Shown one piece after another: positions 1 to 51,770 of a stretch of 64,000 nt of DNA (within the stretch, counting starts at the first letter, position 1; each line of letters starts with the position of its first letter). Origin of the DNA: a virus (taxonomy: Duplodnaviria > Caudoviricetes); the IMG/VR virus record IMGVR_UViG_3300014969_000016, positions 51,715 to 115,714 of that record; one strand, given 5' to 3'. A model generated the notes under the pieces. It was not told where the DNA came from and did no database searches. It worked only from the letters and a program-made list of their open reading frames with translations. The position numbers and the translations under genes are program-made.

Positions 1-96
1 CATGGCCAGGTCATGGAGATCGTGCAGCACCTGCTGCAGTTCTTCCATCACCACTTGGTAGGACAGTGAACGACTCATGGCCTGAGAGTACGTGGG

Positions 97-303
97 TTAC
101 ACCCAGTCGTCGGGGATCGGCGCTATGTCCCAGCGCCGTGCCTCGTCCTTGAAGACAGCCGCCATGCCCCGGAGCACTTCACGTTGGGTCATGCAGTCGG
201 CCTGTGTTATGTCAATAGGAGCATTCCACTCCGGGGACACCTTGTCTGGCTCGTCGGGACGGCTGGCCAGGCGGCTCAGCAAGTCTTTGTTGTCAGCCAT
301 CAC
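97..303 (-). CDS. hypothetical protein
   Basis: ORF in a tightly packed minus-strand run. Confidence 0.5.
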   Translation of the reverse strand: MMADNKDLLSRLASRPDEPDKVSPEWNAPIDITQADCMTQREVLRGMAAVFKDEARRWDIAPIPDDWV

Positions 304-23294: not shown

Positions 23295-23529
23295 AGGGGT
23301 CTTCGGGCTGGTGCTGACCAGTCTCGTTGAGCTTCATCATGCTGTGAACCATGTTCATCGTGGCGTCGCTGGGGTCGTAGATCCCGGCGTTCTGTGCGTG
23401 GTGCCGCAGGACGTGCGGGTGCATGTTCTTCACGTCGTCTGACTTGATGCCCCGAGCCTGCAGGTGCCCGACCAGCTTCTGCGCCTTGACCTGGCGGGCC
23501 ATGTCCTCGTAGGGATTGTTGTCGGTCAC
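23272..23529 (-). CDS. hypothetical protein
   Basis: GTGA-coupled ORF. Confidence 0.55.
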   Translation of the reverse strand: MTDNNPYEDMARQVKAQKLVGHLQARGIKSDDVKNMHPHVLRHHAQNAGIYDPSDATMNMVHSMMKLNETGQHQPEDPFEGLSYG

Positions 23530-24944
23530 GTCACCGGATCCCCTTCCATGTCCATCTCTTCGATGATCTCGTCAACGATCATCGGCCGGTCCAGCGCCCT
23601 GGCGTTGGTGCCCGCCTGCTCACCGAACAGACGCGAGATCAGCCCCGCCGACGCCGCCTGGCCAGCCTCACCGCTGGCGTCCACGCTGATGTGCAGCTTG
23701 GACGAGTTGTCTTCGATCTGCTTCCACTTGTCGATCAGGTCGAAGACACGGTCGATCTCCTTGCCCACCAGGGCATCAGGGGTGCCGAGCGCCTGCTCCG
23801 AGAAGGCGGCGAACAGCGCACGCTGGCCCTGAACCTCGACCAGCGAGCGCAGGAGCGCCTGTCGCTGATCCTTGGTCTTGATGACCACCGGGATGTTGTA
23901 GGCGCACCGTGCCCCTGGGTTGAACGCTGGGCATGACGCCGAGAGGATGCACGTGCTGCATTGCCGTGCCGACTCCTGGGTCACTTCGATGGTGCTGTAC
24001 GACTCGGTCGTCTTGTTGCCCTCTGCATCCTCCGTCTCGGTGATGGTGGTCTGCAGACCGACCAACGGAAGGGGGCGAGTTGATACCGCACTGGTAGGTG
24101 TTTGGGCTGTTTGGTGCCCGGTCGTACGGGGGGCGCTGGCAACTCCACTGATCGGGATGACATTGCCTGGGGAGCCGTTGAAGGCCGGATTAGTAACTAG
24201 CGCATGCCCTGTCTGGCGTCCGATGGTGTTCAGATGTCGTTCCAAGGCCATCCACGACAGGACCGCGCACCTCACCGTCTCGGTGGGATCGTCGGCCAGA
24301 ACGGCCGAGACATCGCACCCGAGCGCTTCGATGGCGTCGGCGTAGCGCTGCCGCTTGAGGTGCTTGTCTTCGGCGTTGAGGCGCACCAGCCTGTTACCCA
24401 CCCATACCTGTGTTTCGCCGTGCTTCTGCACAGCCCACCAGGCGCTGGATACGACCGTATCGAACCGTTCCAAACCCTTGGACCGGCCGGTGAGTCCACC
24501 GAGCACGCCCATGGCTGGTAGCGCCGCCCGTGCCGTGCGCACAGCAGCGGCGTTGTCCACCACGGAATCAGGCAAGACGATGCCCTCGTAATCCTCTGCG
24601 AAGATACGAACCACGCTGGTGTCACGGCCGTCCCAAATGGGAAGGAACCCGAGATCGCTGTCCCTGATCCACGTATCGGTGGCCCAGTTGACTGGCCCTG
24701 CAACTGACTCACAGGCCACCTGGGATCCGGCCAACAGTTCCAATACAGGTTCCACTGGGCAAGAGGGGGTATCTGCGTAGACGATCCAGTCCAGACCGCC
24801 AAGACGGTCATTGGTGGCCCAGTCACCGTACTTTGAGGTGTGCCTGGCCAAGTTGTTGATGTTGATAGCGACACGCTCAACTCCACACTGCTTGAGAAGG
24901 TTCAGGTGGGTGGGCGCCTCTGCTCCAGCGAAGAAGATCTGCAT
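23526..24944 (-). CDS. TGT/DpdA-like fold protein (apparently degenerate) with C-terminal Cys cluster
   Basis: MQIFFAGAE start; FDTVVSSAWW...HGETQVW; CSTCILSASCPAF...CAY. Confidence 0.45.
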   Translation of the reverse strand: MQIFFAGAEAPTHLNLLKQCGVERVAININNLARHTSKYGDWATNDRLGGLDWIVYADTPSCPVEPVLELLAGSQVACESVAGPVNWATDTWIRDSDLGFLPIWDGRDTSVVRIFAEDYEGIVLPDSVVDNAAAVRTARAALPAMGVLGGLTGRSKGLERFDTVVSSAWWAVQKHGETQVWVGNRLVRLNAEDKHLKRQRYADAIEALGCDVSAVLADDPTETVRCAVLSWMALERHLNTIGRQTGHALVTNPAFNGSPGNVIPISGVASAPRTTGHQTAQTPTSAVSTRPLPLVGLQTTITETEDAEGNKTTESYSTIEVTQESARQCSTCILSASCPAFNPGARCAYNIPVVIKTKDQRQALLRSLVEVQGQRALFAAFSEQALGTPDALVGKEIDRVFDLIDKWKQIEDNSSKLHISVDASGEAGQAASAGLISRLFGEQAGTNARALDRPMIVDEIIEEMDMEGDPVT

Positions 24945-26605: not shown

Positions 26606-27049
26606 TTAGGGCCGCGGATCCAGAGTATCAACAACGTCCGTCCACGGCCGGAACTGCTTGTCATCGGCACGCCAGCCAGGGGGGTGGACCGGCGCGCCGA
26701 CCTTCAAAGTCAACACGCCCAGCGCTTGCACCGCATGGATCGTTTCGTCGTCGGAGTCCAGGTAGACGCCTATTTCCCAACCATTGGCGAGAAACTCACG
26801 AACTTGATCCGCTTTCCAGGACGGATATGTCATCGGGCTGTTCCAACACAGCACCCCTGACCAGGCATGGAGGTTCTCTCTGGACAGCCACCAGCGGGCG
26901 ATCTCGTCGTTGGCTCTCGACAGGGCGAAAGTTCGGTATTGGGCACGGATACCGTCGTATAGCGGCTTCGCCCACTTCGTCGGCGCCGAGCGCTTCAGGT
27001 CTTCTTCGGCCGAGAGGGTTCCCTCGACAGCGATCAGCGCTGCGTTCAC
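26606..27049 (-). CDS. HAD-fold-like hypothetical protein
   Basis: ALIAVEGTL...YLDSD...GVLTL; GTGA-coupled. Confidence 0.5.
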   Translation of the reverse strand: MNAALIAVEGTLSAEEDLKRSAPTKWAKPLYDGIRAQYRTFALSRANDEIARWWLSRENLHAWSGVLCWNSPMTYPSWKADQVREFLANGWEIGVYLDSDDETIHAVQALGVLTLKVGAPVHPPGWRADDKQFRPWTDVVDTLDPRP

Positions 27050-30000
27050 AACGGGGCGTTCGTCATCGGCACGTAGGACCAACCGGTGCCCTGGTTGGCC
27101 CACACGTTGCCGTACCGGTCATACGTGGGGTTGCCGGTGAGGTCGCCACGCAGCAGGGCCACTTCGGTGCCGCCGAAGGTGTTGGCCTCACCAATCCCTG
27201 AGCGGACGCTGACCGCCCGGAACAGCCCCTTGGCCAACTGAGCGCCATTGGCCGCGCCCACCTGCAGGTCGGCCGTGGAGTTGAACATGGCCAGACTCGA
27301 CGGGTTGGGGTTGATCTTGGTACTACCCACCTGGCTCCACAGCGTCTGCGGGTCATAGAGCCAGAAGCGGATCTCGTCCTGAAGTGTGGTGATATCAAAG
27401 GTGAAGCTGACGCCAATCGCCACGGCTTGGCCAGGAGCGAAGTTGAGGGTGTAGTCGGTCAGCAGACCGGTGGTGGCGTTGTTGGTGCCGTCTCGCGAGG
27501 TCAACAGCGACATCTGGCCGTTGATCATCTGCCAGAGGTAGGAGCGCTGACCGGCTGCGCCCCACTTGCCGACCAACGTCTGCGTGCCGGTCGTCCAGCT
27601 ATCCAGGGCCACCACGGCCATGATGGTGAAGGCGTACTGGTAATCCAGGTACGGAGAGTCAGCAGTGCGGGCGTAGGTGCCCGCCGTGCCGTCCAGGCGC
27701 AGAGACAGGTTCGACGGTGCCGGTGGTGCGACATCGGTGGCTTCTGTTCCAAGGGCTGCCCACTCTTCGGGCGTGTAGTTGGGCTTCCACACCTGGTTGG
27801 TCGTATCCCAGGACAGGGGGATGTTGCCCGAGACGCCGAAGTCGTACCAGAGGCCGTCCCGCAGGTTGAGACGCATCACGTGGTCATACAGCGGTATCCG
27901 CAAACCGGCCGTCGCCGTCGCCGGAGCGGTGTGACCTGCTTCTTCGACGGTGCCCGCCAGTGTGGGATCCACGTTGATCGTTGTGTCAACACACCACGGC
28001 CCAGGGTAGGAGACTGGGTCGGTGGTCGGATCCAACCAGGTGTCGCCGTAGCCGATGCCAGAGATCGGCCGGATGCGCGAGAGCAAGTTGCGCATCTTCC
28101 AGCCTTCGTCGTTGGATGCGCTGAGCGCTGGTACCTGGGTTTGCCCAGGCGGGATGTCCTGGAGGTTCCAATGGGCGTAGCCGTAGCTGATCAACTGCAC
28201 CTTGAGGTCGGTGGCTGACGGCTCGTAGTGGATGGAGTTGGCGGCAGTGAGCGTCCAGGCACGACCACGGGGGTCGGTGTAGCTGGTGCCGGTACCGGGA
28301 TACTCAGAGGCATCAAACTTCCACAGCAACTGACTGGCCACCGGTTGCAAGATCTTCTGACCTGCTGTCTGGTTGACGGTGACGGTCTGCGTGGTGCGGG
28401 CCGGGAAGGTGGTGACGGTGTCGTTGGGGATCAGCGAGTCATCGACATCTAGCACTGGCCCTTGGATGATCGAGTTCCACGACGTACGTGGATCGACCTG
28501 ACAGATGACGTTGCTAGCAGTTTGCGTCACCGTCACGGTGCCACCAGTAGTAGCAGTGAAGCTGGTCGCCCCTGCCGTGGCGTTGGACTCGTTGATGTCG
28601 GCGCCAACGGTGCCCGCAAACCCGCTGCGGACGATGAGTCGGTACAGGTTGCCTGGATAGGGATAGATGGTCGGTGCCATCGTGTTGGTGATGATTGAAG
28701 TGAGGCCAGCACGTGTAACCGGAGCCACGATGTTCGTCCAACCGCTCGTCGGCTCGGTCGCAGCGTCGGGTGCGTACTCGGCGCTGAGCACCGTACTGCC
28801 CGACCCGTTGTCCACGTCGAGGCGGAACCTCAGCCAGACCGGCACGCCGTCAGTGAAGGCATTCCCCATCAGGGCGGTGTAGCTGAACTGCTGAGCGAGG
28901 GGACCACCGACCGTCCCGTTGAACAACCACTCCAAGGAGTTAAGAGAGTTGTTGAACCGAATACCGTAGGAGGTCGTTCCGGAGTTCCACTTGTCGAAGA
29001 TGTAGCGGTAGTTGCCGGTGAAGGCCCAGGTAGTGGGGGCTATCCGACAGACGATCTCTATGTCACCAGTGATCTGCAGCCCCGCCGAGTTGGCGATCCC
29101 GAGTGTGTTACCAGTGGCATTGGGAAACGCGAAGGCCACTGGCTGACGTTGAGTGACAACAACCGTGCCACCTGTCGTCGCCGGGAACGAAGCAGCACCG
29201 ATGGCGGTGATGTTGGACTCGTTGAAGTCGAACACAGTCGGCCCAGCGATGCCGTTGCGAATGATGGCTCTAGCTAATCTCCATCGACTGTTACGAGCCG
29301 GATCATCGGCACCGAGCCAGATGTTCTGTGTGTTATGACTGATGACCCGTCCCGGCGTACTAGTGAGCGTGCCGGTCAGCGCCGTCCACGTTGTCGGTTC
29401 GACTGGTGTGTTGGTCAGGTTGTACTCAATAGTCGATACCCAGGCACCGGATCCGTTGTCAGCATTCAACGTCGCCTTTAGCCAAACAAGTTGGTTGTTC
29501 GGGAAGATACCACCCGCATAGTTGACGGTCGATGTCATCGTCAACCCAGCGCCGTAGTAAACGATCCACTGCATCTGACGGAAGCTGGAGCGACGAAGAA
29601 TGAAGCTCTGATTGCGCCAGACGATGGCATCAAGAGAAGATGCTGCATCCCAGTCAGGATGAGCAACCCGAACAACGATTTCCATTGTGTTAGCGTTCGT
29701 CGTCACACCTGTGCCAAGAACGGACAATGTGTTACCGGGAACGTTGGGGAACACGGCCCGGAGCGTGGAGGCGTCGATTCCGTTGCGGACGATCACTCGG
29801 GCAATCCGACCGGTGAAGGGTTCAATCGACCCGGCGCTGCGGGCACCGACCTCCACCGCGACGCCAGTAGTCGAGTCGAGCATGGCGCCAGCGGTGCCCG
29901 TGCCTGAGTTAAGAGCGGTCCACGATGTCGGCTCGGTCGCTTGATCAGCCGCCCAGTAGTAGGAGATGAGGCCAGTTGTCGCTACCCGCGTCACCTTCAC

Positions 30001-31620
30001 CCACACCATCGTCCCGTTGGCCACAGGGATAGCTGTGCTGTTGATTCCTGCTGCTGGAAGGAAGGGGTTGAGGGCGAACACCCGTGCCGACGTAGCGACA
30101 AGGCGCCAACCCCGAGGCGAGCCGTCCTTGACGACGATGTTGTTGTTGCCTGTCCCCGTTCCCACGACACAACGAGTGACGATCTCCAGGTCGGCGGGGA
30201 TGACCACTGATGTCACCGGGGTCACGTTCAGGTAGTTGCCAACGATGCCGGGGAACTGCATCGTCGCCCCGGCCACCGCTACACCAGTCGGATCAAGACC
30301 AGTACGTAGTTCGGCAGAGTAGATGCGACCCTGCCACCGGTTGTTCTGCGCCGTTGACCATGCACCGATGGTCAACGGAAGACTGAGATCGATGTTGTAG
30401 GGAAGAGCACCCGCTTGAACAACTTCGGGACCGACCGCAGTCCAGGTCGCTCCATTGTTGAACGAGACGTAGGCACGCCCTGCTGCCTGGTTGGCGCCGT
30501 TGTCCATGTTGAGATACATGGCGATGGTGACTTCAGCACCAGGTACGATTCCAGCAGCGGTCACCTGGCCTGTGTTGGCGATAGTCCCCGGCCTGAAGTT
30601 AAAACCATCACTGGTCGCGTGGTACCAGAGGCCACCATTGAAACCCATCCAACGGAACCCATACGTACCAGACCCCTGCATCTGAGCTATGCCGTACTCG
30701 GACTGAGTAACGAACCCGCTGCTGATCCTCACCTTGGCGGTCATCACCGTTCTGTTCGGCAGTGGCCCAGGGTCTGGCGTTGTGATGGTGCCGATGGTTG
30801 CGTCGAGGTAGCTCAACTCCCCGGTCGGCGGGGTCGATACCGGTGTATCAAGCGTTGACCAGTCGAAATCTCCTCGTAGCGCCGACACCTGAAACAGCCG
30901 GGGCATCCATCCGGCAGGGAGATACCACGGGACCGATGCCGCTTGTGATACCGGTGGGATGCCCATCTGCAGGCCACCCTGGTCGGCCTGGGTGGCGTAG
31001 GTGATGTTCTGAAGGTCGGAGTACTTCAGGTAGACGAAGAACGGCAGGTGGACGGCGGTCTGGCCACGCTCCACGGCACGGGCGATCTCGCGGTACATCC
31101 ACGACATGAAGGGCTGAGCGTTGTAATCGTCGGGCAGCGAACGATTATCAAAGCTCAGCCCCTCATGGCCGTCAACGAACAGTACCCAGTCGTTCTCCTG
31201 GTAGTGGAACACCTTGGCAGCAGCTTCGAACTGCTCCTTGCGCCACAGCGCCGCCTCGGACTTGCTGTAGAAGAAGTTGCGCCCGCTGACGGCGTGCTCA
31301 GAGGCCGGGAAGCTCTCGGCCCAGTTGATGACCCAGTAGCGCTGCTCACCCGTGTTGATGTCCATGATGAACAGGTCATCCACGAAGAAGTCGAGCCAGC
31401 GCACCGACTTGCCCACGTCGTACTCCAGGTCACCGAACTGCGCGCCCACGATGCCGTGGATGACCGGTTCGGCCGTGACGGCCAGTGGTGACACACCTGG
31501 GTTCATGTCCCCGGCCAGCGGCGTGACCGACACGACCTCGGTCTGTGCCGCTAACTGCTGGGGATACTCAGGTACCAGCGTTTGGCCAAGTATCAGCGCT
31601 TCAGCTTCAGTTGCGGACAC
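27046..31620 (-). CDS. large virion-associated protein: GT-A-like domain plus five LamG/ConA-like domains
   Basis: DWVLFVDGHE; repeated FP..GNxL...RxIVRNGI units; start taken at GTG 31620. Confidence 0.7.
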   Translation of the reverse strand: MSATEAEALILGQTLVPEYPQQLAAQTEVVSVTPLAGDMNPGVSPLAVTAEPVIHGIVGAQFGDLEYDVGKSVRWLDFFVDDLFIMDINTGEQRYWVINWAESFPASEHAVSGRNFFYSKSEAALWRKEQFEAAAKVFHYQENDWVLFVDGHEGLSFDNRSLPDDYNAQPFMSWMYREIARAVERGQTAVHLPFFVYLKYSDLQNITYATQADQGGLQMGIPPVSQAASVPWYLPAGWMPRLFQVSALRGDFDWSTLDTPVSTPPTGELSYLDATIGTITTPDPGPLPNRTVMTAKVRISSGFVTQSEYGIAQMQGSGTYGFRWMGFNGGLWYHATSDGFNFRPGTIANTGQVTAAGIVPGAEVTIAMYLNMDNGANQAAGRAYVSFNNGATWTAVGPEVVQAGALPYNIDLSLPLTIGAWSTAQNNRWQGRIYSAELRTGLDPTGVAVAGATMQFPGIVGNYLNVTPVTSVVIPADLEIVTRCVVGTGTGNNNIVVKDGSPRGWRLVATSARVFALNPFLPAAGINSTAIPVANGTMVWVKVTRVATTGLISYYWAADQATEPTSWTALNSGTGTAGAMLDSTTGVAVEVGARSAGSIEPFTGRIARVIVRNGIDASTLRAVFPNVPGNTLSVLGTGVTTNANTMEIVVRVAHPDWDAASSLDAIVWRNQSFILRRSSFRQMQWIVYYGAGLTMTSTVNYAGGIFPNNQLVWLKATLNADNGSGAWVSTIEYNLTNTPVEPTTWTALTGTLTSTPGRVISHNTQNIWLGADDPARNSRWRLARAIIRNGIAGPTVFDFNESNITAIGAASFPATTGGTVVVTQRQPVAFAFPNATGNTLGIANSAGLQITGDIEIVCRIAPTTWAFTGNYRYIFDKWNSGTTSYGIRFNNSLNSLEWLFNGTVGGPLAQQFSYTALMGNAFTDGVPVWLRFRLDVDNGSGSTVLSAEYAPDAATEPTSGWTNIVAPVTRAGLTSIITNTMAPTIYPYPGNLYRLIVRSGFAGTVGADINESNATAGATSFTATTGGTVTVTQTASNVICQVDPRTSWNSIIQGPVLDVDDSLIPNDTVTTFPARTTQTVTVNQTAGQKILQPVASQLLWKFDASEYPGTGTSYTDPRGRAWTLTAANSIHYEPSATDLKVQLISYGYAHWNLQDIPPGQTQVPALSASNDEGWKMRNLLSRIRPISGIGYGDTWLDPTTDPVSYPGPWCVDTTINVDPTLAGTVEEAGHTAPATATAGLRIPLYDHVMRLNLRDGLWYDFGVSGNIPLSWDTTNQVWKPNYTPEEWAALGTEATDVAPPAPSNLSLRLDGTAGTYARTADSPYLDYQYAFTIMAVVALDSWTTGTQTLVGKWGAAGQRSYLWQMINGQMSLLTSRDGTNNATTGLLTDYTLNFAPGQAVAIGVSFTFDITTLQDEIRFWLYDPQTLWSQVGSTKINPNPSSLAMFNSTADLQVGAANGAQLAKGLFRAVSVRSGIGEANTFGGTEVALLRGDLTGNPTYDRYGNVWANQGTGWSYVPMTNAPL

Positions 31621-32230
31621 GACGGCCACGCTTGCGGTGTTCCAGCGCCTTGTTGATGTCGTAGCCGCCCTGCTTGCGGCGGATCTCCACCTGGACGTAG
31701 CTCTGGAAGTAAGGGCACATGTGGCAGAGGTAGACCCGCAGGTTGTTGGGCACAACGTGGACCCGGCCGTCGATCTTGTAGCTGGCCGCACCGATGCGCT
31801 TCTCGTCGGTCATGAAGTCCCGGCAGCCCGAGGACAGGTCGGGGTTGCCGTGGGCGTTGTAACACTTCGCCGCCCCCTCGCGGAACTCGTCGCTCTCTTC
31901 GAACTGGCGCTGGGTCTGCTCGTTCAACTCGGCCTTGATCTTGGTGACCACGTCCATGGTGTCCCAGGTCTTCTGGTCCACCTGCCAGACGTTGATCACC
32001 TGGCCGTTGACGAAGAGTTGCTCCTGCAGGTGGTGCTGGTGCTGCTCAACGAAGTGTTCCAAGACCGGGTCGTAGGCCGGAACCATGATCGGGTTGCCGT
32101 GCTCGTCCTTGTAGACGTACTCCTCACCCGACTCCCACTCCAGGCGGGCGACGGTCATCGGGGTCTTGGCGGGCGGGTCGGGGATGCGTTGGATGATTGC
32201 GCAGGGAGCGCAGGCGACGATGCGTGGCAT
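31607..32230 (-). CDS. Cys-rich hypothetical protein
   Basis: CAPC...KCYNAH..P...GC...YLCHMCP. Confidence 0.65.
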   Translation of the reverse strand: MPRIVACAPCAIIQRIPDPPAKTPMTVARLEWESGEEYVYKDEHGNPIMVPAYDPVLEHFVEQHQHHLQEQLFVNGQVINVWQVDQKTWDTMDVVTKIKAELNEQTQRQFEESDEFREGAAKCYNAHGNPDLSSGCRDFMTDEKRIGAASYKIDGRVHVVPNNLRVYLCHMCPYFQSYVQVEIRRKQGGYDINKALEHRKRGRRVRN

Positions 32231-37387: not shown

Positions 37388-38092
37388 TCACTTCCACTTC
37401 GTATTGAGATAGTTGTTGACCTGAGTCAGTTCGGTGCTGTCGAGGACGTGGTCGTACTTGATCAACTCACCTATCGTGCCGGTGAACGGTTCGCTGAAGG
37501 CGTTCCCGATGTAGGCCAGAGCGGACGAAGCATTGAACGCCTGGTCGTTGGTGACGCTGAGTTGACTGACGCCATCCATGTAGCAGGTGAGCAGGCCGAC
37601 CGCCGAGTACGTGACGATCAGCACAACGGTGGCGTTGGCCGTGACGACTGGGGTGGTCACCCCTAGCTCCACCACCTGGTTCTTCACGACGGACTGCTTG
37701 TGCGTGCTGGAGATGCGCCACTCCAGAGAACCAACGTAGGGGCTGCCGATGATCGCCCGGTAGGCAGCGGTGTTGGTGTGTTTGACGACGGCCACCGCCG
37801 TGAAGGGCTTCTGGTTGGCCCAGCCGTTGTTGATGTCGAAGCGGGTGCCGCCTGCGAAGACCAACGATTTGCGCCCCACCTTCAGGCCATCGCTCGCGAT
37901 GGTGGGCTGGAACCCCGAGCCTGAGGTGGCATGGTTGGCGGCGCCCGACTTGTCGTTCCACTGGCTGACCAGACCGAAGGACTGGGTGATGGTGAGGACA
38001 TCGTCGGCATCGAACCACCACAGCAACCCCGTCATAGGTGGTCCGGAGGCGTTGATCACACCAGAGGCAAGGATCCCGACTGCTAGTGGCAT
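37388..38092 (-). CDS. LamG-like minor tail protein
   Basis: LLWWFDADD...VSQWNDKSG...FTGTIGELIKY...VNNYLNTKW. Confidence 0.75.
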   Translation of the reverse strand: MPLAVGILASGVINASGPPMTGLLWWFDADDVLTITQSFGLVSQWNDKSGAANHATSGSGFQPTIASDGLKVGRKSLVFAGGTRFDINNGWANQKPFTAVAVVKHTNTAAYRAIIGSPYVGSLEWRISSTHKQSVVKNQVVELGVTTPVVTANATVVLIVTYSAVGLLTCYMDGVSQLSVTNDQAFNASSALAYIGNAFSEPFTGTIGELIKYDHVLDSTELTQVNNYLNTKWK

Positions 38093-39066
38093 CAGGTGAG
38101 ATCACCCGTGAGGATCCACCTGTCAGTGGCGAGCTTGATGAGCGACGCCATCGAACCAGGCGCACGCAGCACCGCTGAAGGGGTGGCGACAATCGTCGTC
38201 GTGCCTGGGGTGACAGCAGCGACGGTGATCTTCCCGGCCCCGGTCTGGAGGAAGTCGGTGCGATACCCGACAGGCAGAGCCAGGGTGGCGTTGGTCGGCA
38301 CCGAGATGGTGATGGCTGTCGCTGCTGTGAACTCACGGGTCTGGTTCTCGTCAGCGAGGGTGATGGTGTAGGCCGTCGCCGCCGAGGATGCGGCGATGGT
38401 CTGGCGCTTGGCGGCATAGTTGGCATCGCCGTACTGCTTGGTGACAACCTGCAACGGATTAACGGGGTCGGCTCCCACCTCAAACGGCAGCGTCACCCAA
38501 ACCCTGGCGTTCTCGACGGCGAGACGCGTGATGCCGCCGGTCTTCAATGAGATCGACCCTCCCGACGTTGCCGCCGACACGGAGAGGTCACCGAAGACTG
38601 CGTCACCGACGATCCCGGCACCAGCAGGCCAGGTCAACGCCCCCGTCATCACGTCGCCTGTCTTCAACACCCGCAAAGCATCGGCATTCCCCTGCGCAGT
38701 GCTCACCGGCTTGTTGGCGTCCGACGTGTTGTCCACGTTGGACAGAGCGAGCAGTGTCTTCACCGAGGCCACACTGAGGTCGGTGGCAGCAGCGGTGGCT
38801 CCGGTGGCGTTGCCCTTCAAGCTGCTGGCTGCCATCGTCGCCAACTTGACGTTGGTGACTGAGCCATCGGCCACCGTGGCCGTGATGGTCGTCCACTGCG
38901 TGTTGTAGTTGGTGGCATCGATCTTGGTCAGCGCCTGGCCTGCCGTGCCACCAACAGGAACGCCAACTCCTGGTGGTCCTGCCGCCCCGCTGCCAACGTC
39001 AACGTCAACGAACGTCACCGCACCAGTCGTTGTGTTAATGGCAGTGCAGCGCTTGATGCTAGGCAT
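38092..39066 (-). CDS. tail fibre-like protein
   Basis: VPVGGTAGQAL, LSNVDNTSDANKPVSTAQ, QTGAGKIT...WILTGDL. Confidence 0.75.
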   Translation of the reverse strand: MPSIKRCTAINTTTGAVTFVDVDVGSGAAGPPGVGVPVGGTAGQALTKIDATNYNTQWTTITATVADGSVTNVKLATMAASSLKGNATGATAAATDLSVASVKTLLALSNVDNTSDANKPVSTAQGNADALRVLKTGDVMTGALTWPAGAGIVGDAVFGDLSVSAATSGGSISLKTGGITRLAVENARVWVTLPFEVGADPVNPLQVVTKQYGDANYAAKRQTIAASSAATAYTITLADENQTREFTAATAITISVPTNATLALPVGYRTDFLQTGAGKITVAAVTPGTTTIVATPSAVLRAPGSMASLIKLATDRWILTGDLT

Positions 39067-39069
39067 GAC

Positions 39070-42000
39070 TCATCCCAGGTGGTGGATCTCTAGGCGCCCG
39101 GTGTTGGCATCCTCGGACAGGTTGGCGAGGGTCATGTAGTTGGTCGTGGCATCGGAGGTGGGCTTGAAGATGGCGACGCCCTTCCATGTCGAGCCGTCAA
39201 CGACGTAGTTCGCCCAGCCAGCAGGCATGTCGATGGACTTGGCGGCACCATTCCAAGCGAGGTTGGCGTCGATGTTCGATCCACCTGACAGTTGGGGAGC
39301 CGAACCGTCAGCGGTGGTGACGGTGTGTCTATGCAGGTACATGGTGATGTCGCGGTCCACTCCATCGCCACCGTCCATGCGCTTCATCCACACCTTCCCC
39401 GACAGGATGGTGCGCCTCCCGCCGTAGTACAGAGCGGTGGTGGGCTTGTTGTTGTAGAACCAGCAGCCGGTGGCGTTGTACGCCGAGTTGGAGTAGTAGC
39501 CCTGGATGGGACGGCTGGTACCCATCGCATTCCAGGTGCCGTTGGCCCGGTAGTGGTTGGTGGAGTGCGCCGTGACGTAGGTGGGCGATGTGATAAGGGT
39601 GTATGGCGAGGCGTTGGTGTACGAGACGTTGACCGCAGGGTCGTACACGTAGACCCGGCAGTACACCGTCTGCCCTGCGCTGAAGGTACCGATATCGAGG
39701 GCGTACGATCCTGGGCCAGCCCCAGTCCAGTTCTGGACGATTGTCCAGTTGGCATTGTCGGTGGAACGGTCAACCCGGATCGCCACAGTGTCCCCACCCG
39801 TGGTGTAGCGCACGACCATACGACCATACGAACCTTCCGGCTGGAAGCTGGCGATCACCGGAACGGGTGGAGGCGTGGTATCAGGGGGAGCAGCAGTCGT
39901 GGCAGTCGTCGTGCGCTGCGGCGAGTACAGCAGGCCGGTGTCCCTCGTCCTGACCCCGAAGGTGTAGTTGGTCGAGGCAGCAAGGCCGGTGAAGGTGTAC
40001 GACAGAGCGGTGGTGAAGCCCTTCGACGTGGAGCCGAGGAAGACCTCGTAGTCCCTACGATCCGGGGAGGCAGAGGCAGGCCAGGTCGCCACCGCCGAGT
40101 CGTAATCGACGGAACTCATCGTGATGGAAGTTGGCTGCACGGGGGCAGCGTTGTCGCTGGTGATCGTGTCGCTAACGGTGGTACCGAACAGGCCGGTGGA
40201 ACCCTTGGACCTGATGCCGAAGGTGGTCGTCTCGTTCTCGGTGATCCCCGTCGCTGTGTAGGTCACCCCGGCTTGGGTCGTCACCAACACGCTGTTGACA
40301 TACACCTCGTAGGTGTAACCGGTGCCGCCAGCCGCCGCCGTCCACGACACCGCCGAGTTCGTCGGCCCGGACGACGTGGCGGTCACCCCGGTGACACTGG
40401 CTGGCTTCGTGACGATGCTCACGGTGGGCGAGTACCCACCACTACCTGCTGCGTTGTTCGCCCTGAGGCGGTAGTAGTAGATGGTGTTGGCGGTACGCGC
40501 CGTGTCCGTGTACACATTGAGGGCTGCCGTGGTGGTGAGCACCGTGGGGAACGTCGTGCCATCCGTGCCACGTTCCAAGGAGATAGTGGAGATCGATTCA
40601 GAGGTTGCCCACTGCTGCCAGGAGAGATCCACGGCGAAGCCGGTGGCGGCGTTGCTGATAGTGAGCGTCTTCACGGTAGGTGCTTGCAACCCGAGCGGGG
40701 CGGTCTGGATCCACAGGTCACCGACCGCCAGACCGTTGGCGAACGTCGGCTGATTCTCCCCGACCCAGATGTCGGCCGAGTTGGCACCATCAGTGGGGTG
40801 AAGCTCCAGGATCTCCGGGTGGGTGTGTCCCCTGATGGCGTAAGCGATATCACCCTCGGTTGGAGTGAGATACTGCGGGTGCGGGTCGGCCTCGGCCACG
40901 TGGAGAGCGACCAGTCCAATCGGCTCGTACTTGTCGTCATGGTTGTGGACGATGTCGGCGTAGAGAGTGTCCGCTCTCTCCTCGGTGAGGTAGAGGGCGT
41001 CGGCCTCCGCTTGGTCGAGGTACTGGGAGTGGGGATCGTTGTAGACCTGCCCACCAGCCCCCGGAAGGGTGACCGGCACGGTGTACCCAGGTGGTGCCGT
41101 GGTGCCGTAGGTGATGGTGATCAGGTTGGGTGCCGCCTCGGTGTCGAGCACCTTCCACTTCTGGTTGAGGGCAGGGTCAACGTTCTTCAGGTTGATGTAG
41201 CTGTTCGGCAGGATGGAGTGATTCGGGCTGACCGTCAGTGTGACAACACCGTTCGGGTTCCACGACCAGCCACTCACCGCCCACGGGTCTTGGATCTGGT
41301 GGTTGATGACCTGCTGACGGATCTCTGCCTGGTGGTTGTGAACGACCGGCGCATAGAAGATGTCGCCCTCTGGCTGAGTGAGATACTGCGGGTGCGGGTC
41401 AGCGGCAGAGGTGTGAGCGAGGATCTGGTTCTTGACGTACGTCTCGGTCGAGAAGGGCACGTACTGGAAGAGCACCTGGCCGAGCGTCTGGCCCTTCACC
41501 GTGGCCTTGGTCGAGGTCACCGCCGTCGAGGCGATGTCGGCGTTCACCTTGGCGTAGCTGACCGTCAGCGCAGTCACCGCCGTGATCGTGTAGGTGCCGT
41601 CGAAGGTGGCATCCACGCCCTCCACGTCGATCATGGCACCAGGAAGGAGAGTGTGCGCGCTGACGGGAGGTGTAATCAGTGGCATCGTCAGCGTCAGGGT
41701 GGCAACGTTGGCGGTCAGCGCCTTGTTGTTCACGGCATAGCCGGGTATGGCAGCGACAACCCAGTCACCGTTGTTGAGGGTGATCTGTTCGTCGGCCACC
41801 AGCGGGTTGCCCGAGGGGTAGCGGCCCGAGGCATCGTCGGCAATGAAGTCCACCGTGCCGGTCGAGTTGCACACCCAGTACATGCCGTGGCGATAGACGG
41901 TGGAGCCACCGCTCCACTCCGGGTCGGGATACAACTGGGTGCGGGCCATCCCGCCGCCGACCAGCGTCAGGTTCCCTGGAGACGCCAGCGTCGGTGTAAC

Positions 42001-45000
42001 AACAGTCTGTCCCGGCAGAGCGTCGGACCCCTTGAAGTCGAACGTCGGGATGCTATTGGTCGCTGACCAGACCCGATAGAGGTAGCCCGTGTAGTAGAAC
42101 GTTGCTTGTCCACCAAGGCTTTGGGCTACCGCGATCTCGGACAGCAACTTCCCAGCCCACACGGCACTGCCGAGCGTGGTCCAGGTGGCGTTGACATCAT
42201 CAAGCAGATCGAACCCAGCAGTACGCCAGTAGTGGGTGATGGTGTCGGTGGTTGGATCCCACGCAGCCCGGAGTTGGATCCGAGCAGGGGTGGTCGCGTT
42301 GTAGGCAGGCCACCCCGGAGTAGTGGTCACCGCTGTGAACACCGGAGGCAACAGAGCATCTGAGACGATGAGGTTGGCGGTGTTGATCGTGACGCGATCA
42401 GGGTCGCCGTAAGCAGCGTTGGGGAAGGTGAGAGTGAACGCTGTCGTGTGGGCGGGACCACCGGCCACCGTGATGGTGTTACCAGGAAGCGCTGTGTTGA
42501 GTGCGGTCTTGATGGTGGCAGCGGTGGCGTTCCAAGCGATGTCTCCCGTTGTCACACCAAGGAGCGTGAGGGTGAAGGTGCCAGCGGAGAACGTGCCACT
42601 GGGGGTGACGGTCTGCACCTCGTTCGGATAGGCGGTCGTTACCGAGGCATAGGTGGCGTCGGTGAGACGGACGTACGAGATGAGCGAGGTAGGGGTGAGG
42701 GTGAAGATCAGCGCGCCGTTGACCGGCCTCTGGTTGGTGCCGACACCGATGTTGGGCCGTGTGCAGTCGCAGCGGAACTCAACCGACGCATCGGTCGGCG
42801 GGTCGAAAGTCCAGCCGGTGATCGTGTTGGGGGTGGCGGCGTTGAACGGGATGTACCTGTTCTTGGCCGACAGGTACGACGCTGGATCGTAGGTGCCGAC
42901 GTAGAGGAGGTCACCGAGCAGCGCCTCCATCTCCTCCTGGTTGGCGAAGTAGGTGGCGTGCTTGTCGTCCAGCATGTCGGCGTTGAGGCCGCTGCTGTCG
43001 GCGGTGTGACCGTCGTTGTTCTCATGCCAGACGCGGTATGTCCTGTACTTCAGGTTGGTGGAGTCGAGTGACAGCAGTGACGTGCCTCCCCCCGCAGTGC
43101 CAGAGGTGTCGCTGTGTGTCCCGCCCTGATACCAGTAGAAGGCGGTGGGCGCACGGAAGTACACCGTGTCCTGGCCCGAGCCGCCCACTCCCTGGACACC
43201 GAGGCCGAGGGTGGTGCTGGCGAGCAGGATGTGCTGGCCGGAACGGGAGCCGAAGGCAAGCTGGACGCCGTTGCCGGTGATGTTCAGGTTGCCGCTGACC
43301 GTGCCGCCCGTCAGTTGCAGGTACCCGGCGACAAGGGCCGCTGGTGTGACGGCCACGGTGGCGATGGGTGAGAGGGCAACAGCCTCGGCCACAGTGGACA
43401 GGCGGGTGGCCCCGACGACGGCAGTCGTGGAGACAGGGATCCCGATGCTGAACGATGCGGCGAGGGTGCCGCCACCCGTGAGCGGGCTGCTGACAGTGAT
43501 GGCGACGGCCTTGTCGGCCTTGTTGTTGGTCAGGGTGCTGAGGTCGGTGACGAGGTTGGTGACATCGGACTGGACGATGTTGGCGAAGGCTCCGGTGACG
43601 GCGGCTCCCTGCGACTTCAGGAACTGACCAAGCGTGCCGGGACCAATCGTCGTCTGCGGATCGGTAGGAAGCGCACCAGCGGCGATGAGTCCGTTGGCGA
43701 TGCTGTTGGTGCTACGCCCGGTACCACCATCAACTACTGATACATCGGTACCACCCTGGAGATAGAAGTCGGAGTCGGAGAGAGCAACCTGGAACTGGCT
43801 CGCCGTCCCGGTGATGGTGTTGTTCCCCAGGTTGATCGTCTTGCCGGTCAACGTCTCTGACCCAGCGATGGTGGCGAAGTCGTTGTCACTGAGAGCAGCG
43901 TTGAACAGAGCGGTGGTGCCCGTCACCGTGTTCCCCACCAGGTTGATCGATTTGTTGGTCAGCGTCTCGGTGCCAGCCAGAGTGGCGAAGTCGTTGTCGG
44001 TGAGTGCCGTGTTGAACTGGGCGGTGGTGCCACGAACGGTGTTACCACCCATGTCGATGGTCTTGCTGGTCAGCGTCTGGACGCCGGTCAACGTGACGAG
44101 CGCAGTCGTGTCAGGAATGCCGTGGATGGCGGTGGTGTCTGCTTCATGGGAAGCCAGAGCCGCCGTCGTGGCGATGTCGGCGTCGGTGATCGCAGCGTTG
44201 AACTGGGCGATGGTGCCGGTGAGTCCGGGGTTGGAGCCGAGCGCAATCGTCTTGTTGGTCAGGGTCTGCGTGCCCGTCGTCGTGACGAGGATGGAAGTGT
44301 CAGCGATGCCGTGGACGCTCGTCGTCGCCCCGGTGTGAGCGGAGAGCGTTGCTGCGCTGGCGGCACCGAGAGCGGTCAGCGCTCCCGCCGCCGAGGTAGC
44401 CCCCGTGCCCCCACCAGTGAGGGGGAGCGCCCCACCTGTGTACTCGGTGAGGTCGAGGATGACGGTGGCCTCGTTAGCGGCCGCTGTGACATCGAACCCA
44501 GCAGCGGTGAACAGCAGCGAGGTGAACGCCGAGCCGAGGACGGTGACGCCCTCTTTGACGGTGATACCAGAGATGCCGCCGCCAGCACCGGGAGGCAGCG
44601 CCCACTGTCCGTCAGCGCGGAGGAAGTTGACCGAACCACCACCGGAGTCGGAGGCGATGACGGTGCGAGCTTGGGACGGGGTGAGATCCTGAGGGTCACC
44701 GGTACCAGCAGCAACCCGACCCTTGAATGTGTTGGTGACGACGTTGCTGAGCTTGGTGTTGTCAACGGAGTCGTTGGTCAGATGGATGTTGCCGACGCTG
44801 TCGTCAGCCAACTCGGTGCCTGTGACAACATCAGGATTGATCTGCCAACTGGTCCCGGCCACCGTGATGTCACCCTTGTTGCCATCAGTGACACCGCTGC
44901 CGACGATGGCCTCACCACCGCCGCCGCCAAGACCTGATGTCCACACCGGGAACTCGGGATTGCCGCCCTGGAAGAGCACCCAGCCCATCCCGGTGGCGGG

Positions 45001-45126
45001 CGTCCCGAGGTAGTTGACGATCTGAACTGCCGTTTCCCCGAAGACCTGGGGGACGTAGGCGGTGATGACGGAAGACTCGTACTTGACTGCTCTCGCCCGG
45101 TAGATGGCGTCGTATGTCTTCGCCAC
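39070..45126 (-). CDS. 2018-aa tail fibre/spike: gp5-like OB N-terminus, fibre repeats, lectin-like and FN3 domains
   Basis: VPQVFG...GWVLFQGGNPEFPVW; four LTNKTI-type repeats; three DPHxQYL; FN3-like YYYRLRA, YTFGVR. Confidence 0.8.
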   Translation of the reverse strand: MAKTYDAIYRARAVKYESSVITAYVPQVFGETAVQIVNYLGTPATGMGWVLFQGGNPEFPVWTSGLGGGGGEAIVGSGVTDGNKGDITVAGTSWQINPDVVTGTELADDSVGNIHLTNDSVDNTKLSNVVTNTFKGRVAAGTGDPQDLTPSQARTVIASDSGGGSVNFLRADGQWALPPGAGGGISGITVKEGVTVLGSAFTSLLFTAAGFDVTAAANEATVILDLTEYTGGALPLTGGGTGATSAAGALTALGAASAATLSAHTGATTSVHGIADTSILVTTTGTQTLTNKTIALGSNPGLTGTIAQFNAAITDADIATTAALASHEADTTAIHGIPDTTALVTLTGVQTLTSKTIDMGGNTVRGTTAQFNTALTDNDFATLAGTETLTNKSINLVGNTVTGTTALFNAALSDNDFATIAGSETLTGKTINLGNNTITGTASQFQVALSDSDFYLQGGTDVSVVDGGTGRSTNSIANGLIAAGALPTDPQTTIGPGTLGQFLKSQGAAVTGAFANIVQSDVTNLVTDLSTLTNNKADKAVAITVSSPLTGGGTLAASFSIGIPVSTTAVVGATRLSTVAEAVALSPIATVAVTPAALVAGYLQLTGGTVSGNLNITGNGVQLAFGSRSGQHILLASTTLGLGVQGVGGSGQDTVYFRAPTAFYWYQGGTHSDTSGTAGGGTSLLSLDSTNLKYRTYRVWHENNDGHTADSSGLNADMLDDKHATYFANQEEMEALLGDLLYVGTYDPASYLSAKNRYIPFNAATPNTITGWTFDPPTDASVEFRCDCTRPNIGVGTNQRPVNGALIFTLTPTSLISYVRLTDATYASVTTAYPNEVQTVTPSGTFSAGTFTLTLLGVTTGDIAWNATAATIKTALNTALPGNTITVAGGPAHTTAFTLTFPNAAYGDPDRVTINTANLIVSDALLPPVFTAVTTTPGWPAYNATTPARIQLRAAWDPTTDTITHYWRTAGFDLLDDVNATWTTLGSAVWAGKLLSEIAVAQSLGGQATFYYTGYLYRVWSATNSIPTFDFKGSDALPGQTVVTPTLASPGNLTLVGGGMARTQLYPDPEWSGGSTVYRHGMYWVCNSTGTVDFIADDASGRYPSGNPLVADEQITLNNGDWVVAAIPGYAVNNKALTANVATLTLTMPLITPPVSAHTLLPGAMIDVEGVDATFDGTYTITAVTALTVSYAKVNADIASTAVTSTKATVKGQTLGQVLFQYVPFSTETYVKNQILAHTSAADPHPQYLTQPEGDIFYAPVVHNHQAEIRQQVINHQIQDPWAVSGWSWNPNGVVTLTVSPNHSILPNSYINLKNVDPALNQKWKVLDTEAAPNLITITYGTTAPPGYTVPVTLPGAGGQVYNDPHSQYLDQAEADALYLTEERADTLYADIVHNHDDKYEPIGLVALHVAEADPHPQYLTPTEGDIAYAIRGHTHPEILELHPTDGANSADIWVGENQPTFANGLAVGDLWIQTAPLGLQAPTVKTLTISNAATGFAVDLSWQQWATSESISTISLERGTDGTTFPTVLTTTAALNVYTDTARTANTIYYYRLRANNAAGSGGYSPTVSIVTKPASVTGVTATSSGPTNSAVSWTAAAGGTGYTYEVYVNSVLVTTQAGVTYTATGITENETTTFGIRSKGSTGLFGTTVSDTITSDNAAPVQPTSITMSSVDYDSAVATWPASASPDRRDYEVFLGSTSKGFTTALSYTFTGLAASTNYTFGVRTRDTGLLYSPQRTTTATTAAPPDTTPPPVPVIASFQPEGSYGRMVVRYTTGGDTVAIRVDRSTDNANWTIVQNWTGAGPGSYALDIGTFSAGQTVYCRVYVYDPAVNVSYTNASPYTLITSPTYVTAHSTNHYRANGTWNAMGTSRPIQGYYSNSAYNATGCWFYNNKPTTALYYGGRRTILSGKVWMKRMDGGDGVDRDITMYLHRHTVTTADGSAPQLSGGSNIDANLAWNGAAKSIDMPAGWANYVVDGSTWKGVAIFKPTSDATTNYMTLANLSEDANTGRLEIHHLG

Positions 45127-49721: not shown

Positions 49722-51770
49722 TCACTGTTTGGCTTCCGCCCAACTGGGGCCACAGGCGGCGGATACAACAAGCGGGATCTCTCCAAGGATCGGTCTTCCG
49801 TGTTCGTCTGTGATTCCTGACATTACCCTCTGTACACAGGCCATTACACCATCGACGGCTGTTTCATCGACCCTTACAACGATCTCGTCGTGGACCTGAG
49901 CGAGGATCTGTGCTGGGAACTCGGTCAGTTCAAGATGAAGTTGCCTCATGGCCATCTTGGTGATGTTGGCAGCGAACCCTTGTACGTATGCGTTCACCGC
50001 CTGGCGCTCCGCTCGCAGCATCGCCCACTTGGTGTCAACCAGCAGGGGCATGAGGTCGGGCAGCCTGCGACGGCGGTGGGAGATGGGGATGTCCACGTAG
50101 GGCGGGAACCGCAGAGGATCTGACATGTCACAGCGGGAGCGTGCCTCACGCAGGAGCGATGCCTTCCACGGCTCCAGCGCCGAGAACTCTTCGTAGTAGC
50201 GGTCGAGGAACTGCTGGCCCCTCTTCTTGGTCACCTTGGCCGTCGCCGCGATGCGCTCAGCACCTGCCCCGTAGCCGGTGGCGAAGTTGAGGGTCTTGCC
50301 CAGTTGTCGGAGGTCGGAGGTGACATCAGTCGGGTCAATGCGCATCGCCGTCGCGGTCGCTTCACGGTGGATGTCCCGGCCCTCCCGGAAGATCTGGATC
50401 ATCGCCGGTTCCTCGGCGGCGTAGGCCAGGCAGCGCAGTTCGATCTGGTCGTAGTCAGCGACGATCAGCAGGTGGCCAGAGCCAGCCACGAACAGCGAGC
50501 GGATCGACGTGCGCCCCTTCGACTCGCGTGGCAACTGCTGGAGGTTGGGTTCGGCCGACGACAGCCGACCGGTGACCGTGCCATGGAGCTTGAAGCCGGT
50601 GTGCAGTGTCGGCAGGCCATCACCGTCACGGTAGAGGAAGTTGTCCAACCCTTCGATGAAGGTGCCCCGCAGCTTCTCACTGATCGACCATTCAAGGAAC
50701 AACTGCGCCATGCGGTTGCCCCGGTCGGCGTAACTCTCCAGCACCGTCTGCGTCACCTGGGGAAGCCCGCCCTCCTTGGTCCGAGTGATCACCTTGAGGT
50801 TCTCCGACTTGAGCGGGCGCTTGGTCGAGCCGTGCTCGCGCTTGCCCTCCCCGAACATGATCCATCGCTTGGCATCGGTGTTGGAGAGGGGGAACTTGTC
50901 CCCGGCTCTGGACCACGCCTCTTCCTGGATCTTCTGCTGTTGAGCGATCAGCGCCTGACGGACCACGTCCATGTTTGATGTGTCAACAGGGAACCCGGCG
51001 TACTCCATCGACATGATCACCGGGTACATCGACATCTCAAACTCGTAGGTGTCGAGCACGCCTCGCTTGGCCAACAGGGGCCAGAAGGCTTGCTTCATCA
51101 TCCAGCAGTATCGGAGATCCTTAGCCAGGTATCGGGCGATCACGTCCAGCCCGAAGTTTTCGATCCCCTTCTCACCAAGCTCCGGGTAGAACTTGGCCCG
51201 CCTCTTCCACGGGATGCTGAACCACTCGCAGGTCAGGTGCTTCAACCCGTACTGGCCGAGGTCTTCGTCCAGCACGTGCCGGATGATGATCGTGTCGTGG
51301 TACGGGCCTGGTGGAACGGCGTGGTCATACCATTTCGCTAGGCTGAGAAGGTCGAACTTGAGGTTGTGCCCGATCTTGGCCCGGTCGCTGAACAGCAGGG
51401 GTTCGATGACCTCGCACACTTCGTGGGGATACAACTGTTTCGGCGGGGCGTCGTACTCAGCAGGAAGCGTGTGCGGCACCATCCGCTGCGACGGCTTGCC
51501 CAACTTGGTCTGCCCACGGGGGTCGTTGGGATAGAGCAGGTAGGCCGGTGTCTTGGTGGGCCGCTGGGGTGCGATCATCACACCCTTGGGGTGGCCGACC
51601 GGTATCAGGAAGTTGCGACCAGCAGCACCAAGGCCAACCCACCGTAGTGTGTTGGCCCTGGCGGTCTGCTTCGTTGTCTCAACATCGATGACGAACTCAC
51701 GCTCGCCACGCAGGTCTTTGACCGCCCGCCGAACCTCACCTAGGTCAAGCAGTACATGCGGACGGACCAT
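49722..51770 (-). CDS. polA: family A DNA polymerase with 3'-5' exonuclease
   Basis: IDVET, GHNLKFD, TGRLSS..PNLQ, DYDQIELR, KTLNFATGYG, QVHDEI. Confidence 0.95.
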   Translation of the reverse strand: MVRPHVLLDLGEVRRAVKDLRGEREFVIDVETTKQTARANTLRWVGLGAAGRNFLIPVGHPKGVMIAPQRPTKTPAYLLYPNDPRGQTKLGKPSQRMVPHTLPAEYDAPPKQLYPHEVCEVIEPLLFSDRAKIGHNLKFDLLSLAKWYDHAVPPGPYHDTIIIRHVLDEDLGQYGLKHLTCEWFSIPWKRRAKFYPELGEKGIENFGLDVIARYLAKDLRYCWMMKQAFWPLLAKRGVLDTYEFEMSMYPVIMSMEYAGFPVDTSNMDVVRQALIAQQQKIQEEAWSRAGDKFPLSNTDAKRWIMFGEGKREHGSTKRPLKSENLKVITRTKEGGLPQVTQTVLESYADRGNRMAQLFLEWSISEKLRGTFIEGLDNFLYRDGDGLPTLHTGFKLHGTVTGRLSSAEPNLQQLPRESKGRTSIRSLFVAGSGHLLIVADYDQIELRCLAYAAEEPAMIQIFREGRDIHREATATAMRIDPTDVTSDLRQLGKTLNFATGYGAGAERIAATAKVTKKRGQQFLDRYYEEFSALEPWKASLLREARSRCDMSDPLRFPPYVDIPISHRRRRLPDLMPLLVDTKWAMLRAERQAVNAYVQGFAANITKMAMRQLHLELTEFPAQILAQVHDEIVVRVDETAVDGVMACVQRVMSGITDEHGRPILGEIPLVVSAACGPSWAEAKQ

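Follow-up and report, generated by a model that had tools for sequence, protein, structure and literature searches.

Evidence for recursive insertion of LamG-like domains into a glycosyltransferase-like protein of an uncultured phage

Proteins in which binding modules are inserted into, or added to, another domain have been described in several settings. The 'evolved' Dit, Tal and BppA baseplate proteins of siphophages, known from lactococcal and Lactobacillus phages, bear inserted carbohydrate-binding modules (CBMs). Polypeptide GalNAc-transferases combine a GT-A fold of family GT27 with a ricin-type lectin that directs the enzyme to its substrate. Nested insertions are known as well, with up to six levels in the cyanobacterial RNA polymerase (PMC13114784, Protein Sci 2026). 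In this study we describe a gene found on the minus strand of a 64,000-nucleotide stretch of phage DNA (IMG/VR record IMGVR_UViG_3300014969_000016, positions 51,715 to 115,714; hereafter the window, meaning this whole stretch). Its product appears to share with the RNA polymerase the A1-B1-C-B2-A2 logic, in which inserts host inserts and split halves reunite in 3-D (PMC13114784); here such a reunion is predicted for one of the two split modules. The explanation that we favour, and consider probable as a whole, is a nested cassette of LamG-like domains on a GT-A glycosyltransferase-like core, with an inferred role in specificity. One surface loop of the core carries four nested LamG/pentraxin beta-sandwich modules, and a fifth module sits at the C-terminus. 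The two outer modules, D1 and D2, have taken up one or more further complete modules at the loop that separates their body from their tail, and the chain runs through the D1 body, the D2 body, D3, D4, the D2 tail and the D1 tail back into the core. The architecture and the behaviour as a cassette are the part of this explanation in which we have high confidence.

Compared with the RNA polymerase, the units here are LamG/pentraxin sandwiches that are always opened at the loop before their last three strands, and the host is a phage GT-A-like domain. Moreover, close relatives differ in how deep their nest is and in what it contains, and the exchange of the nest takes place cassette by cassette; it is no fixed feature of a lineage. 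The cyanobacterial RNA polymerase is also said to have like domains inserted into like. With the evolved Dit, Tal and BppA proteins the protein shares in-frame lectin-type modules in loops, which are variable among related phages and are thought to widen or alter host recognition. There, however, the hosts are known virion proteins (the galectin domain of Dit, and Tal), which hold a single module or two adjacent ones; here the host is GT-A-like and at most a putative virion protein, and the insertion is LamG-in-LamG, up to four deep. The GalNAc-transferases likewise join a GT-A fold with lectin modules and may serve as a working model for how the protein acts. Their lectin is single, C-terminal and ricin-type, whereas the modules here are LamG-type and, apart from a single C-terminal unit, interrupt a loop of the core; the two are not related in sequence, and an activity of the phage protein is putative. 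The concanavalin-A-like pentraxin, laminin-G and neurexin LNS domains have the strand order of the rejoined D2, which superposes on them, but two of the phage units are discontinuous in sequence. A literature search on nested insertion in phage or CBM proteins found none, which is weak negative evidence. What we regard as new is recursive LamG-in-LamG insertion in a variable nest that acts like a cassette, within a phage GT-A-like family that lacks annotation.

The protein comprises residues 58-1581 of the open reading frame (ORF) P0001 and is identical to the database cluster P0002. Its length of 1524 aa is close to the ~1520 aa given in a preliminary description of the gene. Residue numbers throughout are those of P0001, counted from window position 31791 downwards. 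We define a module as a body (B) of ~170 aa followed by a tail (T) of ~35 aa with three strands. The gene and its parts, with E-values from profile hidden Markov models (HMMs) of body and tail and with the GC content of third codon positions (GC3), are read as follows.

27046..31620, minus strand: whole gene, 1524-aa protein, A[D1[D2[D3 D4]D2']D1']A'-D5
30820..31620, minus strand: A, aa 58-324, N-terminal piece of the GT-A-like host domain; conserved motif FVD(207)GHE(210)GLS; joins A' directly in 40 representatives
30283..30819, minus strand: D1 body, aa 325-503, ending ELRTGLDPTG; body HMM E 3e-31; contiguous with its tail in P0004
29764..30282, minus strand: D2 body, aa 504-676, ending VRNGIDAST; body HMM E 2e-35; contiguous with its tail in P0060
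29140..29763, minus strand: D3, complete LamG-like unit with its own tail, aa 677-884; GC3 0.62; has the codons AGA TTA GCT AGA
28480..29139, minus strand: D4, complete LamG-like unit with its own tail, aa 885-1104; 31% identity to D3; body and tail HMM matches
28345..28479, minus strand: D2', final three strands of D2, aa 1105-1149, VLDVDD...TVTVNQ; tail HMM E 2.5e-11
28216..28344, minus strand: D1', final strands of D1, aa 1150-1192, LLWKFDASEY...DPRGRAW; tail HMM E 1e-14; distal 'handle'
27727..28215, minus strand: A', aa 1193-1355, C-terminal piece of the GT-A-like host domain; holds a second permissive loop at aa ~1278-1290
27049..27726, minus strand: D5, C-terminal contiguous LamG-like unit, aa 1356-1581; body HMM E 9e-36, tail E 1e-6
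28329..30757, minus strand: cassette that is hypervariable in its DNA; blastn gives no similarity here to the related contigs L004, L005 and L001, which are 77-83% identical elsewhere

A BLAST search of the whole protein against itself gave the identity match only, and the segments were compared pairwise instead. D3 and D4 are 31% identical across 198 aa (E 3e-16), D2 matches D3 with E 5e-7 and D4 with E 7e-6, and the matches of D1 to the other units are weaker (E 0.004-0.02). Once rejoined, D1+D1' and D2+D2' align in register with D3, D4 and D5. D3 and D4 are inserted as complete domains, each with body and tail and each aligning full-length with D5. The breaks of D1 and D2 fall in one alignment column, right after a conserved R-x-G strand; both units are thus opened between this strand and their last three strands, which agrees with the single permissive loop proposed earlier. 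The D1 body breaks at ELRTGLDPTG (aa 494-503, window 30312-30283) and the D2 body at VRNGIDAST (aa 668-676, window 29790-29764). D2' contains VLDVDD (at aa 1113, window 28455) and TVTVNQ (aa 1136-1141), D1' contains LLWKFDASEY (at aa 1155, window 28329) and DPRGRAW (aa 1173-1179, window 28275-28255), and both VRSGIG and DRYGNVW lie within D5. The codons AGA TTA GCT AGA encode R838-L839-A840-R841 (window 29280-29269). All motifs and codons quoted in the preliminary description are found where it had placed them.

The body and tail HMMs were run over the whole window and found five bodies and five tails, all inside this gene. Along the protein they are ordered B B B T B T T T ... B T. P0006 and P0007 share the series B B B T B T T T with it, and D5 is present in neither. 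The whole protein had no Pfam match with an E-value up to 1, and when D3, D4 and D5 were searched singly with E-values up to 10 allowed, neither LamG nor Laminin_G_3 (Pfam: PF13385) came up; PF13385 is present in the distant relatives P0009, P0010 and P0015. An ordinary tandem array would arrange the LamG units as beads on a string and treat the additional 'tails' (aa 1105-1192) as linkers or as a small separate domain. In such an array D1 and D2, having no distal tails, would miss the three strands that are found in D3, D4 and D5.

Homologues without the inserts speak against the tandem array as well. An exhaustive search found 1291 relatives. In P0004 (987 aa, from the syntenic locus L001), ...RIYSVELRTGTNP is followed directly by AAGTVLWKFDASDYPGTGT / ...VLWKFDASDYPGTGT...; D1 is joined to D1', and query aa 502-1148 are absent. 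In P0060 a D2-type ...RVHRLIVTDG... is followed directly by PVFDYDEALIPNDTV...TVNQ...LLWRFDA, and D2 is joined to D2'. Since D2 leads directly into its tail, P0060 lacks D3 and D4, and its stretch PVFDYDEALIPNDTV...LLWRFDA is 76% identical to query aa 1112-1187. The two proteins thus have the same tails right behind the D1 and D2 bodies. P0003 matches the query with 80-97% identity in its flanks and holds a single, unrelated complete unit in the D1 loop. Further out, 40 of the 53 representatives that have both halves connect A straight to A', within 5 residues. The remaining ones have 205-228, 425-435, 660-667 or 826-888 extra residues at this site, and the query has 868. Read from these sequences, the insert sizes are quantised in steps of ~210 aa, equivalent to one to four modules. 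The second loop, in A', contains 189-212 or 853 extra residues in six other representatives, of which five hold one LamG unit there. The sixth, P0006, holds the whole four-unit nest in this loop as a complete D1[...]D1', with A and A' joined directly. The unit alignment, the HMM order and the uninterrupted homologues together bear out the nested architecture of the preliminary description, including its expectation that homologues would lack the inserts at the junctions, which is seen here for D1|D1', D2|D2' and A|A'.

Structure prediction provides a further line of evidence. An AlphaFold2 (AF2) model of aa 301-1200 was built on the 21-sequence alignment A2, picked by local trials so that all units were covered; the MAFFT alignments A1 (64 sequences) and A3 (42 sequences) were discarded, with misregistered repeats and D3 uncovered. 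The model has a mean predicted local distance difference test (pLDDT) score of 79 and a predicted template modelling (pTM) score of 0.64. With VIA-align, whole single-domain pentraxins and LamG/LNS domains superpose on model residues 208..850, which are P0001 residues 508..1150. The pentraxin chain 4pbp_A superposes on D2+D2' with Z 17.4 and a root mean square deviation (rmsd) of 2.5 Å over 176 of 206 residues, and PTX3, SAP, CRP, neurexin LNS and laminin LG do so with Z 13-17 and rmsd 2.3-3.3 Å over 165-177 residues. Because single pentraxin chains align across model residues 208..850, the D2 body and D2' are predicted to be one compact sandwich despite the 428 residues between the two pieces. 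This pairing had been anticipated from the sequence, and it is difficult to reconcile with a tandem array. Neurexin LNS2 (2h0b_A) aligns contiguously to D3 (model residues 375..582). Strands are predicted for the D1' stretch (pLDDT 80-90), and D1 occurs in the VIA-align lists with body-only matches (27..204). D1' was assigned to D1 by elimination, because it is the sole unassigned tail and D1 the sole body without a tail; P0004, this elimination and the co-variation described below argue for the D1/D1' pairing.

Among the structural matches are also enzymes in which the LamG-like match spans a long part of the chain, namely residues 74..580 of dimethylformamidase (6lvb_A, 6lve_A, 6lvd_A), with ~193 residues aligned, and residues 71..568 of 8huy_A, an acylase entry. 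These matches hint at solved enzymes that have a discontinuous LamG-like domain with an insert.

Nesting is not confined to the gene in the window. Out of 94 representatives having two or more bodies, 29 have consecutive tails, in runs of up to four, and 23 of those 29 give fully balanced bracket strings (BBTT, BBBTTT, BBBBTTTT, BBTBTT and BBTBBTTT). With consecutive tails a tandem array is impossible. Under nested (last-in-first-out) pairing, body and tail identities are correlated with rho 0.47 (67 units in 23 nested proteins), compared with rho 0.09 under first-in-first-out pairing and 0.05±0.05 under random pairing within proteins. The 34 split units alone give rho 0.33, against 0.09±0.04 for random pairing with a maximum of 0.23 in 200 trials, so co-variation favours the nested pairing too. 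What can be said for the tandem array is that strictly tandem BTBT arrays do occur in the superfamily, in 12 of the 94 multi-unit representatives, and that a D1/D1' contact is not directly seen. Overall we regard it as very improbable for this protein. Recursive LamG-in-LamG insertion of up to four levels is a habit of the whole family. It follows a fixed like-in-like rule, always at the loop before the last three strands, that can be read as balanced brackets. Domain parsers, structure prediction and the engineering of domain insertions can all make use of this rule, and an annotation as 'tandem LamG repeats' gets the topology of such proteins wrong.

The domain that hosts the nest was modelled on P0040, an uninterrupted core homologue of 404 aa that is 46-47% identical to query A and A', together with 35 relatives (pLDDT 81, pTM 0.82). 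Foldseek matched the model to the glycocin S-glycosyltransferases SunS/ThuS and to SpsA, TarP and KfiA with probability 1.00 and E 1e-5 to 5e-4, and also to cytidylyltransferases of the same superfold and to viral GT2 proteins in BFVD. At the level of the predicted fold, the A/A' host domain is GT-A glycosyltransferase-like. A and A' are seen reunited as one domain on this contiguous homologue only, where the first insertion site is the loop G234|V235 before the strand 237-241. All 36 invariant or near-invariant residues of the family are retained in the split query domain, including D207 and E210. These two belong to a near-invariant D...E in 'DWVLFVDxxEGLS' (FVDGHEGLS in the query) at the end of the strand 115-120 of the P0040 model. 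In SunS/ThuS, SpsA, TarP and the viral GT2 proteins, ~150 aa of the query-family core (A') have no annotated counterpart.

Sequence-based searches with the core gave little. The family profile had no match among PDB sequences, a search of the ESM Atlas with P0040 gave no usable match, and Pfam gave nothing usable for A alone. PHROGs had nothing for the whole protein and nothing consistent across the 35 core homologues. A tblastn search of the whole protein against 50,697 records of cultured phages left the core unmatched; the sole match was a weak one of D5, at window 27100-27600, to gp25 of the Arthrobacter phage Shoya (32% over 136 aa), which is annotated as 'tail fiber protein' in one record and as 'hydrolase' in another. 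Many members of the family are core-only proteins of ~400 aa without a lectin module. The GT-A-like core thus represents a previously unnamed phage protein family.

Comparison with close relatives shows how the nest varies. Three related contigs (L004, L005 and L001) align to the window by blastn with 67-83% nucleotide identity on both sides of the gene and into it, and the two flanks of the gene have 83% and 77% identity. The DNA similarity ends at aa ~335-347, after the first D1 strand (...TPDPGPLPN), and resumes at aa ~1155-1171 (LLWKFD...). Across the same interval the protein identity to P0003 falls from 80-97% on the flanks to 12-46% or becomes unalignable. The first ~20 residues of the D1 body form a conserved 'head' strand, and the stretch from the D1 body through D2' behaves as a replaceable cassette between two handles, the D1 head strand and the D1' tail. 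Judging from the strand order of pentraxins, the two handle pieces would lie next to each other as edge strands of D1. All four units of the nest are common to P0006 and P0007 at only 31-36% identity, and in P0006 the nest lies in the other host-domain loop; for these reasons it is an old and portable cassette. It occupies either of two core loops, with a size in multiples of the module.

The preliminary description had proposed repeated acquisition of modules at one loop. Stepwise acquisition in this lineage, with the inner modules newest as shown by their atypical codons, would fit the one-module steps of the insert sizes in the family and the use of the same loop by D1 and D2, and D3 has indeed a low GC3 with the rare codons AGA and TTA. 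However, a nest shared with P0006 and P0007 at such low identity, and at another site in P0006, predates the lineages, and close relatives differ by replacement of the whole cassette, which is exchanged at breakpoints located in the D1 head strand and in the D1' tail. The GC3 values are 0.65 for D1, 0.62 for D3, 0.76 for D2 and D4, 0.79 for A/A' and 0.85 for D5, against 0.80±0.07 for other genes. The statement that the inner units have atypical codons therefore holds for D3, while the inner D4 and D2 are normal and the outermost D1 is low as well. The GC3 profile, suggested earlier as a check, does not track the nesting depth, and GC3 was rejected as a clock of the order of acquisition. We consider stepwise acquisition in this lineage unlikely.

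The favoured explanation assigns a function to the modules by analogy with lectin-guided GT-A enzymes and with siphophage baseplates decorated with CBMs. The LamG modules may bind glycans or proteins and thereby determine the target of the GT-A-like core or, should the protein be part of the virion, that of the particle; we put forward this functional part tentatively, at somewhat less than even chances. Recombination in the conserved handles would exchange specificities, and replacement of the cassette would be a route of diversification. The lectin cargo is hypervariable among phages that are ~80% identical, a signature expected of a determinant of host or substrate specificity. Receptor diversification had been proposed before: the block is the one stretch that differs among these phages, which fits diversification, but there is no evidence for the word 'receptor'. 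A bolder version, which we rate slightly lower than the functional part itself, is a recursive 'lectin tree' with one graft loop per module, up to four deep, that acts as a plug-in cassette with two handles and two sockets, so that a swap of the tree, by recombination in the handles, would give the enzyme or the virion new glycans or hosts as targets. If true, this would be a diversification system unlike C-terminal tip swapping, diversity-generating retroelements or side-by-side CBM decoration.

A different view of the core is possible. In a virion-borne adhesin or receptor-binding protein the GT-A-like domain would be a non-catalytic scaffold or anchor, and the lectin tree would be the receptor-binding surface. 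The gene lies on the same strand as, and downstream of, a 2018-aa fibre-like gene, minor-tail and virion-structural matches and an endolysin; a hypervariable cassette is typical of host-range determinants; and D5 resembles part of Shoya gp25 with its 'tail fiber' or 'hydrolase' annotation. On the other hand, no part of the protein has a structural PHROG or Pfam match, the retention of all conserved GT-like residues, D207 and E210 among them, suggests that the core keeps a function of its own, and many relatives are the core-only proteins mentioned above. We regard a virion adhesin as rather unlikely, though clearly less so than stepwise acquisition. The term 'virion protein' used in the preliminary description could not be upheld, as the interrupted domain is GT-A-like and matches no PHROG, no Pfam family and no cultured phage.

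Several points weigh against the explanation of a nested LamG cassette on a GT-A-like core. The query was part of the set used to iterate the body and tail HMMs, which inflates their E-values on it. The AF2 model of the nest used an alignment of 21 sequences and has some low-confidence loops, and the D1/D1' contact is not readable from it, with D2 filling the top 50 fold matches. For the core, the fold matches of the P0040 model have TM-scores of 0.2-0.48 at ~10% identity, the acidic motif is D-x-x-E and not the classic DxD, and no Pfam glycosyltransferase family was found at threshold, the best being Glyco_tranf_2_4 (Pfam: PF13704) with E 0.0095 in 7 of 35 members. The GC3 values, low for D1 and D3 yet normal for D2 and D4, give no simple order of acquisition. 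Ligand binding by the LamG units, association with the virion and an effect on host range are all putative.

The database contig with the gene is 115,652 bp long and stems from an uncultured phage. Besides the nested gene, the minus strand of the window encodes an SNF2 helicase, a family-A DNA polymerase and RecA. It also has the 2018-aa fibre-like ORF, matches to a minor tail protein and to a virion structural protein, and an endolysin that contains a PG_binding_1 domain. The closest cultured phages by DNA polymerase are Streptomyces phages of 113-116 kb, at 31% identity. The reading frame of the nested gene comprises 1581 codons without interruption. Its GTG start lies at 31620 or 31629 and overlaps an upstream gene for a 207-aa protein, whose stop is at 31607-31609; this overlap of start and stop suggests translational coupling. 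Neighbouring genes for 200 aa upstream and 150 aa downstream recur at related loci, where synteny is kept on both sides of the gene. An artefact of assembly or gene calling, such as a chimeric contig or fused ORFs, might be suspected from the metagenomic origin and from the relative P0005, which is truncated with respect to its own DNA homology. The single uninterrupted frame, the conserved synteny on both sides and the occurrence of the same architecture in independent JGI and ENA assemblies, in P0006 (4 contigs) and P0007, leave this with a negligible probability.

P0005 (L005:7403-10408) ends at the equivalent of query aa ~1263, and the DNA of its contig aligns on past the stop with 73% identity. 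This means that the P0005 gene is split or frameshifted there, or that the assembly has an error.

Three further genes on the minus strand of the window are worth mentioning. The 2018-aa ORF at 39070-45126 has only weak traces of fn3 and of a NedA-like galactose-binding (discoidin-like) domain; it lies upstream of the minor-tail and virion-structural matches and is probably a fibre. The protein encoded at 37391-38101, within the PHROG 'virion structural protein' match, has a marginal LamG body HMM match (E 0.024) and may be a remote jelly-roll relative. At 23526-24944, four genes downstream of the nested one, a 472-aa protein is encoded whose C-terminal part matches phrog_887, queuine tRNA-ribosyltransferase-like, with E 1e-19, and this gene has 77-80% nucleotide identity in related contigs.

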